Origin: Erysipelotrichales bacterium
GTDB taxonomy: Bacteria > Bacillota_I > Bacilli_A > RF39 > UBA660
Assembly: GCA_022508565.1 (NCBI GenBank)
Contig: JAFLUY010000004.1
Location: 47,454-111,453 of the forward strand
DNA: 64,000 bases
Reading direction: 5' to 3'
Below, in pieces: positions 12,512 through 15,277 of the stretch. How positions within the stretch are numbered: the stretch's first letter is position 1; the number at the start of each line of letters is the position of its first letter. The notes below the pieces were generated by a model, which worked only from the letters and a program-made list of their open reading frames with translations, had not been told where the DNA came from and did not search any database. The translations under genes and the position numbers were made by a program.

Positions 12512-15277
12512 TTATTCTTCTGTTTTAAATATTACAATTTTTGACTTAAGACTTTCTAACTCTTCTTTAAGATTTTTTATTTCATCTTTAAGAGTATTAA
12601 TATCTTTTATAAGAGAAGCAGCTTCTCCTTCGTGTGATTTAATCCAAGTATCTACTTCTTTAAGTGTATCGAAAGTATCTTCTAATTGTCCTTCTTCATT
12701 TACTAGGAAATTGATTTTGTCGTCTACATATTTGCGAGTGGAGATAACATCTGTATCAATATATAAATCAATATAATTATCTTCATCTTTTCTAACTTCT
12801 AACCCATTAGATAAGAATAATTCAATTATTTTTTTATCTCCTATAGCTGAATATTCAGATTTATCAGAAGTAAATATTATTTGATTAACGATATCGCTAT
12901 CTTCAGCAACTTTAGTTATTCCGCTAAGTTTACTAATATTATTAGTAATATTATTAAAAGTTGAATAATCGAATGTTAATACTTCACCATTAGGGCCGTC
13001 AAATTCTATACCTTGAGAAGAAGTATTTAAAACTCCATTTATTAATACATTTCCTTCATCTTTACCAATTTCGATATTATTATTTTTTATATTGATAAAG
13101 TCTTTAGGAAGTAATATATATTCATCAGTTGTGTATGTGACAGCATTATTTTGAATTACAAGAAGTTTATAAACGGTTACCTTTGATGTGTTTAATCTAT
13201 CTAATGCTACAAATTCTAATGTAAGTCTATCAGTTGTCCCCATCCATGCTATATCAGTACATGTTAATATATGCATTGTGTAATTACCTTCACAAACTTG
13301 TAATTTTATATTACCTGTATTTTTAATACTTTGATTAAAGTATGCATTAATAATATTATTTATATCCGCATCATAAATTTGTTGCTCTTTCTTTGTATCG
13401 ATCGTGAGCATATAAATTCTTGAATAAAGAGACAAATTTAAATCGGAAAGTTGTACACTTGATACTATTGAAAATGCTATATTTATTTCTGGATGATTGT
13501 ATTTAATTACAGTAAAAAATGGTTTACCTTGTACATAATTAATAAAACCTAATGTTGTACCTCCGTCAACGAAAAGGAGCTGTGCATTTGATGTACTGCC
13601 TTTGAGAATGATTTGGGCATCTTTATTTGTAGCATCCTTAATATAAGTATCATAATCAGAAACACTCATAAATGGAGAAGTGCCTGAATTAAAATCATAT
13701 AAACTTGTAGTATTACCAAAATAAAGAGGTATTACGACTATTTCATTCTCTGGCGGTGAAGTAATTGGCGTGCTCTGTACCAAATCGAAAATAATCGTTC
13801 TTTCGGGATGATCATATCTAATTACTTCAAAGTAGTATGAACCGTGTTTATTAACTATATAACCCAACTCTAATTGAGTATCTTTTCTCATATATAAGAC
13901 ATCGACAGTCGCGTCGGCCGCTTTTAGAATAGTTGATGAACCTTCTTCATATGCCTTTTGAAGCAAATTATAATCATTATAAGAAAATGTTAGTGTAGTA
14001 TCGCTACCTCCAAACGAATATAATTCGTCGGAATTTTGTTTCAATATAGGAATTATTATCGTCTCAGAAGATACTTCTTTTAATTCTTCCTTAGTAGCAT
14101 ATATTTCTTCAGCTTCTTTTTTAGGTAGATATTCCTCTGATTTAATAGAAGAGTCTAAAAAACCAACAATAGGATAACCAGCAAAACGAAAATAATCAGT
14201 ATTTGGGTAGATCCTATCTGAACCGAAAGCCAAATATAATCCTTTGGAAGGGCTAGAAATACTCAAAGAAGAAGAATAGAAATCGCCCCAAGACCCAACA
14301 TCACCAACGCCATCTTCACAACAACCAGAAGCAGGGAAGAATAGTTGTTTGGATTCATCTGTCTCCAATTTAAATAATCTACCATTTAATCCAGACACTC
14401 CATTATAATTAGTTACCCATTCTGTACTACATAAATTATACAATGTTTGGAATTCATCGGTAGTTGGCATCCTCCAATTTCCGCCCATATTTTGGACGCA
14501 CGCATCGTCTTCCGGAAGAAGAGTTGTCAAATTATCAGTAAAACCGTCTTTACCATATTCTGAATCGGTACAATATTTAGTTATATGATCATAAAGATCT
14601 CCCCATTTATAATCAGACCAATCTGAACTAAATTCTTTATTAACACCCACTTGAGATGCAGTATATCCTTCTATATCACCCCATTGGAAATATTTTATAT
14701 TGTCTTTCCAATTAGAATCCCATTCACTCACCCCGATAGGATATTTAGCCCATATACCCGCCTCGCCCATGTCTACATATTCATAGCCATTGGTAGGAAG
14801 TAACGACATGATTCCTAAAGATTCAATAACTTCTTTTATTTTAGAATTTACTTGATCTTTTGTATATATATCTATAGAATCATCATCTCCTTCTTCGATA
14901 TACATTTCTCTAACATTGAAATCTTCCTCAAATACTTCAACATAGTTTCCTTTTTCTGCTAATCCGTCTCTACTAGAAGTCTTTATCCAGTTTTCTTCAA
15001 CTAAGGAGTCTTTAATAGGAACTCCATCAGGAATGACATTTTCCCATTTCGGCATGAAAGTATATGTAGCTCCTTCATCTCTAACATAAACTTGCAAACC
15101 TTCATATATAAATAAAAATCCTGTATTCTTATCGTGTGGAAAAGATTCTACGTTTAATAAATCATCATAAGTGTTTACTACAAAACGACTATCGATAGGG
15201 TCACTCGCTCCTGCAACAAAAGTAGCTGGCATCGCTTTAGTAGCAACTCTAACTTGAGGAATAGTTTTTTCAGCCAT
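12512..15277 (-). CDS. tail-fibre-like protein (921 aa): shared N-terminal adaptor domain + FISUMP-like domain + C-terminal coiled coil
   Basis: N-terminus (PIDSRFVVNTYDDLL...FIYEGLQVYVRDEGATY...EENWIKT) is paralogous to the N-termini of the genes at 15510 and 20105. Residues ~250-380 (LLPEDDACVQNMGGNWRMPTTDEFQTL...FFPASGCCEDG...SWGDFYSSSLS...YFRFAGYPIVGF) follow the layout of the Fibrobacter succinogenes major paralogous domain (W-H/R-x-P-T/S-x-x-E-W, then FWSS..., then a basic-Cys tail). C-terminus: LKDEIKNLKEELESLKSKI heptads. Confidence 0.8.
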   Translation of the reverse strand: MAEKTIPQVRVATKAMPATFVAGASDPIDSRFVVNTYDDLLNVESFPHDKNTGFLFIYEGLQVYVRDEGATYTFMPKWENVIPDGVPIKDSLVEENWIKTSSRDGLAEKGNYVEVFEEDFNVREMYIEEGDDDSIDIYTKDQVNSKIKEVIESLGIMSLLPTNGYEYVDMGEAGIWAKYPIGVSEWDSNWKDNIKYFQWGDIEGYTASQVGVNKEFSSDWSDYKWGDLYDHITKYCTDSEYGKDGFTDNLTTLLPEDDACVQNMGGNWRMPTTDEFQTLYNLCSTEWVTNYNGVSGLNGRLFKLETDESKQLFFPASGCCEDGVGDVGSWGDFYSSSLSISSPSKGLYLAFGSDRIYPNTDYFRFAGYPIVGFLDSSIKSEEYLPKKEAEEIYATKEELKEVSSETIIIPILKQNSDELYSFGGSDTTLTFSYNDYNLLQKAYEEGSSTILKAADATVDVLYMRKDTQLELGYIVNKHGSYYFEVIRYDHPERTIIFDLVQSTPITSPPENEIVVIPLYFGNTTSLYDFNSGTSPFMSVSDYDTYIKDATNKDAQIILKGSTSNAQLLFVDGGTTLGFINYVQGKPFFTVIKYNHPEINIAFSIVSSVQLSDLNLSLYSRIYMLTIDTKKEQQIYDADINNIINAYFNQSIKNTGNIKLQVCEGNYTMHILTCTDIAWMGTTDRLTLEFVALDRLNTSKVTVYKLLVIQNNAVTYTTDEYILLPKDFINIKNNNIEIGKDEGNVLINGVLNTSSQGIEFDGPNGEVLTFDYSTFNNITNNISKLSGITKVAEDSDIVNQIIFTSDKSEYSAIGDKKIIELFLSNGLEVRKDEDNYIDLYIDTDVISTRKYVDDKINFLVNEEGQLEDTFDTLKEVDTWIKSHEGEAASLIKDINTLKDEIKNLKEELESLKSKIVIFKTEE

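Follow-up and report, generated by a model that had tools for sequence, protein, structure and literature searches.

A module shared by three fibre-like proteins

A 64,000-nucleotide stretch of contig JAFLUY010000004.1 (GCA_022508565.1, deposited as Erysipelotrichales bacterium; hereafter the window) encodes three large fibre-like proteins, all on the minus strand, that carry copies of one module of about 200 residues. Protein 1 (921 amino acids (aa), 12512..15277) holds it internally, at residues ~167–374 (copy 1, 14156..14779, minus strand). Protein 2 (1164 aa, 23227..26721) has it at the C terminus, at residues ~964–1164 (copy 2, 23230..23832, minus strand), where the domain ends at the stop codon. 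Protein 3 (650 aa, 16947..18899) contains a highly divergent copy at residues ~82–292 (copy 3, about 18024..18656, minus strand).

Copies 1 and 2 are readily aligned. BLASTP matched residues 167–376 of protein 1 with residues 964–1164 of protein 2 at 110/214 identities (51%, E = 3e-59), and at the DNA level the 5′ end of the common segment contains a block of 146 nucleotides (nt) that is 86% identical (14630–14775 and 23683–23828, repeat family D14). Database searches returned 487 relatives of the domain at E ≤ 1e-3, the best at 1e-92; together with the E value between the two copies, this rules out a chance resemblance of motifs. The extent of copy 1 was set by its AlphaFold2 (AF2) model, which is structured from about residue 8 to about residue 215 of the query, and by a block of similarity at 14163–14791 to a metagenomic contig, L001. 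Both copies contain EDDAC, a longer motif around a tryptophan (GNWRMPTTDEFQTL in copy 1 and ENWKIPNAEEFQNL in copy 2; spelled out, G-N-W-R-M-P-T-T-D-E-F-Q-T-L and E-N-W-K-I-P-N-A-E-E-F-Q-N-L) and FYSSS or FWSSE, respectively. The conserved core of the family is W, DDA[AC], G-W-R/K-x-P-T/N-x-x-E-x-x-x-L, F-x-P and [FY][WY]SS. Its cysteine is not conserved across the family, in which DDAA is commoner than DDAC.

A preliminary description of this DNA had proposed, from such motifs, that all three proteins contain a region like the Fibrobacter succinogenes major paralogous (FISUMP) domain. The shared domain is real and the listed motifs are present, with some corrections: the segment given for copy 1, 14137–14527, reaches only the C-terminal ~60% of the module, that given for copy 2, 23230–23700, leaves out the stretch up to 23832, and the basic, cysteine-containing tail is absent from copy 1, which reads RFAGYPIVGF.

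The curated models matched the window copies weakly. Lcl_C (PF07603, formerly DUF1566) scored 15.2, 16.4 and 18.6 bits on copies 1 and 2 (E = 0.027 to 0.0023; 16.4 bits on copy 2, and a best E of 0.0023 on copy 1), below its threshold of 34.9. TIGR02145 gave 19.1 bits in protein 2 only, with a cut-off of 41.65, and PF09603 matched none of the three window proteins. The search with the FISUMP models that the preliminary description had called for thus formally failed, but the homologues do link the copies to the family. In an alignment of the two window copies with 80 database hits (A1, n = 82), Lcl_C matched 73 members (best 2.4e-17), TIGR02145 matched 57 at E ≤ 0.01 (best 1.2e-9) and PF09603 matched 10. 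Because Lcl_C matches more members than the FISUMP models do, these intermediates place the copies at the superfamily level only, and the label that fits the sequences is the DUF1566/FISUMP superfamily, somewhat nearer Lcl_C, rather than ‘a FISUMP domain’. This mixed picture agrees with the description by Wu et al. The superfamily is also broader than the Fibrobacterota and Bacteroidota lipoproteins to which it had been taken to be restricted: DUF1566 is spread widely among prokaryotes (PMC11162425) and is also found among the targets of phage diversity-generating retroelements (DGRs; PMC5758913, PMC8143477).

The AF2 model of copy 1 has high confidence (predicted local distance difference test (pLDDT) 96, predicted template modelling score 0.91). 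A Foldseek search of BFVD gave nothing significant for the copy-1 or copy-3 model; the best match of copy 1, a weak one (probability 0.92, E = 0.015, template modelling score 0.31), was a ‘Fibrobacter succinogenes major paralogous domain’ protein of an uncultured Caudovirales phage.

A divergent third copy

The copy in protein 3 has lost much of the recognisable signal. Its motifs have decayed (WR.PT to AHIPR, and WSS to ISS), its pairwise E values with copies 1 and 2 are 0.03–0.06, it matches no Pfam or NCBIfam model, a word-indexed homology search returned no homologue, and direct hhalign comparison with the family profile gave a probability of only 5.6%. Among 192 open reading frames (ORFs), the family hidden Markov model (HMM) found three colinear patches in it with an E value of 0.0014. 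An exhaustive phmmer search of 1.84 billion representatives with copy 3 recovered 61 distant relatives (E 1.6e-13 to 1e-3). The consensus of 49 relatives aligned with copy 3 reads YVDLGLPSGTLWA...YYxWGE...DxATxxWGxxWRxPT...EL...IFLPxxG...YWxST...RPV, and in this alignment (copy 3 included, n = 50) Lcl_C matches 35 sequences (best 9.6e-28) and Fib_succ_major (PF09603) matches 9. When the profile of the copy-3 relatives (A2) was aligned with that of the copy-1/2 family (A1), hhalign gave a probability of 100% (E = 1.7e-45). The AF2 model of copy 3 (pLDDT 76) has a disordered or low-confidence insertion of ~25 residues at residues 142–164, and its order of helices and strands is that of copy 1.

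The phmmer relatives, the profile alignment and the order of structural elements thus establish that copy 3 is real, as the preliminary description had supposed, although no curated model recognises it directly. All three copies are homologous to the DUF1566/FISUMP superfamily, copy 3 demonstrably so only through intermediates. A six-frame scan of the window with the family HMM found no fourth copy.

The window copies belong to a phage-borne lineage

Among the closest relatives of the window copies, 77 of 80 lack a signal peptide, as called, like lipoboxes below, by a simple in-house heuristic; most are 200–260 aa long with a short conserved N-terminal adaptor. We also scanned one genome each of 185,579 species with a single peptide pattern and kept the best 80 loci, a sample that describes close relatives only. 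These bacterial-genome relatives are typical secreted proteins or lipoproteins, 65 of the 80 having a signal-peptide-like N terminus and 34 a lipobox; one locus, L004, packs three paralogues into 5 kb beside SprA, with ribosomal genes nearby. Their identity to the window copies is at most 45%, compared with 47–71% for the relatives without signal peptides.

Metagenomic contexts of the relatives were phage-like in three of the four cases examined. L001 carries DnaB, RecA, a methyltransferase and T5orf172, and in L002 and L086 successive genes encode proteins of ~900–1130 aa, with a sigma factor also encoded; the fourth, L087, was left unclassified. On viral contigs of IMG/VR, the module was found at 75 loci, and nine of these contigs are 204–413 kb long. 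Fifty-five of the carrier ORFs are ≤350 aa, and five, of 1035–1480 aa, have the module at the C terminus.

A neighbour-joining tree of 161 trimmed domains, a distance tree in which both sequence sets are best-hit samples and which fixes no direction of transfer, grouped copies 1 and 2 with signal-peptide-less sequences in a clade that has 76 members. Of these, L006 alone comes from a bacterial genome; the remaining 78 sequences from genomes make up the sister group, together with the three metagenomic proteins that bear signal peptides. L006, from a Muribaculaceae metagenome-assembled genome (MAG; JAFLTO010000006.1, 43–3618), is a 215-aa copy without a signal peptide that lies directly after three ORFs with tail-fibre or collagen-like minor-tail PHROG matches (E = 1.7e-30). 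The lack of a signal peptide, together with these strong matches upstream, marks L006 as very probably prophage DNA within a Bacteroidales genome, where the copy would probably serve in a tail fibre.

Copy 1 is most closely related to a stand-alone gene on the phage-like contig L001, with 77% nucleotide identity over 634 nt (window 14163–14791). This similarity coincides with the module, and the rest of L001 resembles nothing in the window. A match so confined indicates that the module is exchanged among phage-like contexts as a discrete DNA cassette. The window copies belong to a phage-borne lineage whose members are either short stand-alone proteins with an adaptor or the C-terminal tips of proteins of more than 1000 aa. 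The phage and bacterial forms certainly descend from one ancestor, and the split between the phage lineage and the bacterial lipoproteins looks old.

The adaptor, ‘MKY[IL]K.FE....Y......L.LPNVS’, spans ~40 residues ahead of the domain in most of the ~240-aa phage-type relatives (P0033–P0119, L090–L113). It may be a docking peptide that lets a head encoded by its own gene attach to a fibre or baseplate. Its PN[VIL]S motif is absent from the 22 window ORFs checked, which included those of the fibre block and other large ORFs.

A hypervariable segment at the C-terminal end of the module

Column entropy in the family alignment rises to 2.3–2.7 bits at residues 320–370 of protein 1 (14168..14320, minus strand), compared with ~1–1.5 elsewhere. 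In the same segment, a proposed ligand-binding face, copies 1 and 2 share 30–36% identity, compared with 57–77% at the N-terminal end. The segment sits where the DUF1566/Fib_succ_major targets of DGRs have their variable region (PMC5758913). Ligand-binding domains of this group are recognised targets of C-type-lectin-class DGRs, both in Legionella and in phages of Bacteroides (PMC5758913, PMC8143477). With hypervariability in that position and a superfamily so well known for DGRs, a DGR is the most interesting alternative to be considered here.

No reverse transcriptase was found among the 38 ORFs of ≥100 aa in the window, which is 64 kb of a 377-kb contig (see below). Nor did the window contain a template repeat: each variable stretch occurs only once in the 64 kb, the best off-self matches being 35–37 of 60 bases, which is chance level, and no repeat was found in this way within ±10 kb in L001, L002, L086 and L087. 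Substitutions between two close homologues involved all base types and were spread along the gene, and so were not adenine-specific. On these grounds, which cover the window and the surroundings of four relatives, we set a DGR reading aside as very unlikely.

On the 73-kb contig of L087, the gene for a 318-aa homologue of the domain is followed 1.3 kb downstream by a 301-aa ORF with a weak RVT_1 match (12294–13199, minus strand). A gene for an IS605 OrfB/Cas12f-like TnpB is also nearby, and no template-repeat/variable-repeat pairing with the domain was found.

Architecture of the carrier proteins

Protein 1 consists of an N-terminal anchor, the DUF1566/FISUMP-like module, two tandem repeats of ~100 aa and a C-terminal coiled coil, the last marked by weak coiled-coil-type matches at residues 850–914. 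The ~100-aa anchor (14978..15277, minus strand; alignment A3) is common to the products of 15510..16922 and 20105..21901. Across these three fibre-like proteins (14978–15277, 16623–16922 and 21602–21901, minus strand) it is 36–46% identical with 23 invariant columns and the motif P..D.R...IY.G..VYV.DE..Y...NW, and it probably attaches all three to the virion.

Protein 2 has an N-terminal region, a stalk of SHAEG-type 14-residue repeats, a spacer and the module as a C-terminal head. It matches a BimA/YadA-head-like NCBIfam model (E = 7.5e-8), Pfam YadA_head (E = 0.037) and phrog_25468 (E = 2.9e-68). Its 42-nt (14-aa) repeat array (24614..26064, minus strand; repeat families D1–D3, spaced at 42 nt) encodes about 35 YadA/BimA-like repeats and is presumed to form a trimeric β-roll stalk. 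The same 42-nt SHAEG repeat occurs in four genes on both strands (5454–5969, 24601–26064, 28424–28989 and 51345–52099), and a stretch of 238 nt is 78% identical between 5454–5691 and 24601–24838, which points to repeat exchange among fibre genes.

Protein 3, to which an identical protein exists in a public collection (P0121), bears its divergent module near the N terminus. Its C-terminal ~340 aa are paralogous to the neighbouring genes, being common to 15510..16922 (470 aa) and partly to 21921..23174 (417 aa) at 74–80% nucleotide identity (families D9, D10, D12, D15 and D17). Across 15510–16922, 16947–18899 and 21921–23174 (minus strand) the C termini are conserved and the N termini vary, the reverse of the usual tail-fibre pattern.

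None of the three window proteins has a signal peptide. A modular, fibre-type build is present: a shared anchor, a stalk of 14-aa repeats and cassette-like exchange of heads, with the relative L006 directly after tail-fibre genes.

The window is part of a jumbo phage, most likely of gut Bacteroidales

By sequence look-up, protein 1 has an exact match on a metagenomic contig of 377,382 bp (ENA ERZ27293317, k141_1147735). Among deposited phages, the 1136-aa product of 31760..35170 has distant relatives (21–25% identity) only in jumbo or mega phages; the 30 records comprise 15 Prevotella Lak, 5 Tenacibaculum, 2 Chryseobacterium and 2 Sphingomonas PAU phages and 6 uncultured huge phages. At the nucleotide level, a megablast comparison of 20 kb of the window with deposited phages gave no match. 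The window is thus a piece of a novel jumbo phage of 377 kb.

A gut Bacteroidales host, within the Bacteroidota, is well supported by four largely independent lines of sequence evidence. Of 37 genes, just one has a Shine-Dalgarno core upstream (AGGA, GGAG or GAGG at −20 to −4), compared with a frequency of 10.5% at random positions, in keeping with the absence of such motifs remarked on in the preliminary description; the leaders of the window genes are rich in A and T. Of the best 80 genome loci described above, 79 are in Bacteroidales MAGs or isolates from rumen, caecum and faeces (including Muribaculaceae, Paludibacteraceae, Ca. Aphodosoma, Bacteroidaceae, Prevotella, Segatella and Leyella), and the exception is one Acutalibacteraceae bin. 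The relatives of the 1136-aa protein are mostly in phages of Bacteroidota, and the phage-type-clade relative L006 is in a Muribaculaceae MAG. The Bacteroidota-like host suggested earlier is therefore supported, most likely within the Bacteroidales. The window has no tRNA genes, hence allowing no tRNA-based host inference.

The carrier genes lie in a ~33-kb run of minus-strand genes (2886–35170) that are very large, rich in repeats and fibre- or adhesin-like; the window as a whole is AT-rich, with a G+C content of 26–36%. Genes of this block encode collagen repeats, many YadA-head-like 14-aa (42-nt) SHAEG repeats and BspA-type leucine-rich repeats (LRR_5, E = 9.9e-41 and 3.4e-11), the last as previously described. 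A Peptidase_G2 intramolecular-chaperone domain is encoded near the fibre-like genes, and other phage-like genes of the window encode an RNase_T exonuclease, a glucosaminidase, a TnsA-like endonuclease and glycosyltransferases.

A pattern scan found a terminator-like hairpin, as a pattern match only, at 15335..15363 (minus strand) in the 232-nt gap upstream of protein 1, which suggests that protein 1 may begin its own transcription unit. Terminator-like hairpins with T-runs occur in three gaps of the fibre block (15335–15363, 20050–20075 and 29644–29675, minus strand) and suggest that the block is several transcription units and not one long operon. In a scan for sigma-70 promoters, matches were no more numerous than in shuffled sequence.

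The window genes read cleanly under table 11, the standard code. In six loci on viral contigs (L118, L147, L098 and L108–L110), in-frame TAG codons are the sole interruptions of the homologous domain ORF, as in ‘EF*TL’ for the ‘EFQTL’ of protein 1. Two of these loci, L118 and L147, come from IMGVR_UViG_3300031992_004563 (380,519 bp, G+C ~0.27). This suggests that TAG is recoded in those large module-bearing phages.

Interpretation

The reading that we consider probable, though well short of settled, is that this 377-kb Bacteroidales jumbo phage displays the ~200-residue modules as glycan- or ligand-binding heads on several of its fibres. Beyond the homology, modularity and phage lineage documented above, we infer binding, trimerization and a place on the virion: the module would be a ligand-binding head, probably for a glycan, on trimeric fibres. 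In protein 2 it would form a C-terminal ‘lollipop’ head on the YadA-like stalk; proteins 1 and 3 would bear it as a knob, at the side or internally. The conserved core would serve as a scaffold and the variable C-terminal ~50 residues as the binding face. Such heads may mediate adsorption to Bacteroidales surface polysaccharides, and several divergent copies could give the phage several specificities without a DGR.

Several observations weigh against this reading. The three proteins match no Pfam or PHROG tail-fibre family, with no PHROG at all for proteins 1 and 3 and only families of unknown function for protein 2, so that ‘fibre’ is deduced from the repeats and the shared anchor. The module lies near the N terminus in proteins 1 and 3, an unusual spot for a receptor-binding tip. 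No window copy attains the curated cut-off of Lcl_C, PF09603 or TIGR02145, and a tblastn search of 50,697 deposited phage genomes with the module returned nothing at E ≤ 1e-5. Foldseek of the copy-1 model against the PDB gave nothing significant (best E = 0.49), and searches of PDB sequences with family profiles detected no solved structure; a C-type-lectin-like fold of the module is for this reason putative, being borrowed from the literature by analogy.

The position of the module in proteins 1 and 3 would suit a structural knob better than a tip, and the C-terminal domain (CTD) of Lcl does make a trimer interface and bind host glycosaminoglycans (PMC11162425). The module might accordingly be a trimerization knob, or a binder of animal-host glycans such as mucin or glycosaminoglycans that serves adherence to mucus, and not a binder of the bacterial receptor. 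Our data do not separate bacterial from animal glycans. However, a purely structural role accounts less well than diversifying ligand recognition for the hypervariable surface segment and the several divergent paralogues, and many relatives are stand-alone proteins or C-terminal heads, so we regard this alternative as unlikely. The modules would be DGR variable proteins if a reverse transcriptase gene in another part of the genome served to rewrite their C-terminal ~50 residues from a template repeat. Such a system would account for the position of the variable stretch in a superfamily that is a recognised target class, Bacteroides phages included (PMC5758913, PMC8143477), and one relative, L087, has the weak RVT_1 gene 1.3 kb away. 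Against it stand the window, which has no reverse transcriptase among its ORFs of ≥100 aa and no second copy of the variable stretches, the equally negative searches around L001, L002, L086 and L087, and the differences between close homologues, which involve all base types along the gene; we consider it very unlikely.

The preliminary description saw in the fibres a captured host surface-protein module. A recent acquisition from a host FISUMP lipoprotein, with the fibres displaying a host-derived adhesion domain, would fit the fact that Bacteroidales have many paralogous relatives with a signal peptide or lipobox (a signal-peptide-like N terminus in 65 of 80; three paralogues in L004, near SprA) and the two forms are surely of common ancestry. 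The window copies nevertheless lack signal peptides, and the best bacterial-genome relatives are no more than 45% identical to them, whereas the signal-peptide-less relatives, phage-like where their context was examined, reach 47–71%. In the tree, copies 1 and 2 sit in the 76-member clade whose lone genome-derived member adjoins prophage tail-fibre genes, with the 78 others in the sister clade, and the nearest relative at the DNA level (77% nucleotide identity) is a gene on a phage-like contig. The tree is a neighbour-joining one of best-hit samples and sets no direction for an ancient transfer. Recent capture thus has, in our judgement, only a small chance of being correct.

A wider idea, which we put forward tentatively and hold to be doubtful, is that the signal-peptide-less DUF1566/FISUMP heads are an old, phage-specific lineage of plug-in receptor-binding modules. 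These would be cassette-swapped among the 200–400-kb phages and prophages of Bacteroidales and would give multivalent glycan recognition without a DGR, and the large paralogous families of Bacteroidales FISUMP lipoproteins would be a sister lineage and not their source, perhaps having arisen from them or serving as decoys against them. If this were true, the heads would either be fused into giant fibres or be supplied as ~240-aa proteins with the ‘MKYLKKFE...LPNVS’ adaptor.

Our favoured reading, that of binding heads on several fibres, provides concrete candidate receptor-binding heads for an uncultured gut phage of ~377 kb. A superfamily best known in phages as a DGR target serves here as a shuffled cassette in several fibres of a single phage, with no DGR detected in the window or beside the relatives examined. 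The analysis corrects the idea of recent host-to-phage capture and reveals no new mechanism.

Comparison with known systems

The closest curated relative of the module is Lcl_C/DUF1566 (PF07603), the best-matching model for both groups of relatives (73/82 for copies 1 and 2, and 35/50 for copy 3). In Lcl, the C-terminal DUF1566 domain forms a trimeric, C-type-lectin-like head that is carried by a collagen stalk and recognises sulphated glycosaminoglycans (PMC11162425). Protein 2 has the same plan of a long repeat stalk that ends in a DUF1566 head, and its head may bind glycans as that of Lcl does (PMC11162425). The window copies differ in scoring only 15–19 bits (cut-off 34.9) and in having an extra tryptophan-rich N-terminal extension of ~85 residues. 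Neither profiles nor Foldseek detected a PDB entry, the solved Lcl-CTD included if it is in the copies searched. The stalk in the window is YadA-like and not collagen, and the proteins are phage-encoded rather than substrates of type II secretion.

With FISUMP proteins (TIGR02145/PF09603) the module shares its superfamily, its order of motifs and the TIGR02145 matches of 57/82 homologues. FISUMP proteins also have several paralogues per genome, as the window has three copies within 12 kb, and the close bacterial relatives of the module are Bacteroidales lipoproteins. Unlike them, the window copies are below the cut-off (19.1 versus 41.65 bits, with no PF09603 match), carry no lipoprotein signal and are embedded in phage proteins of 650–1164 aa; cysteines are not conserved across their family.

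The DGR variable proteins of the DUF1566/DUF823/Fib_succ_major type, such as Legionella LdtA and the targets of the Bacteroides uniformis ‘Bacuni’ phage, resemble the module in superfamily and in the position of the variable segment (PMC5758913, PMC8143477), but no template repeat or reverse transcriptase was found in the window, or paired with the domain beside the four relatives examined, where L087 has only the weak RVT_1 ORF noted above. Several module-bearing relatives have in-frame TAG codons, whereas the window reads in the standard code. Finally, although identity to Bacteroidota jumbo and mega phages is only 21–25% and nucleotide similarity to any deposited phage is absent, the window resembles these phages (Prevotella Lak, Tenacibaculum pT24 and Chryseobacterium MA9V) in that relatives of its 1136-aa protein occur there and in Sphingomonas PAU, and in scale, with a contig of 377 kb and modules on IMG/VR contigs of 204–413 kb.

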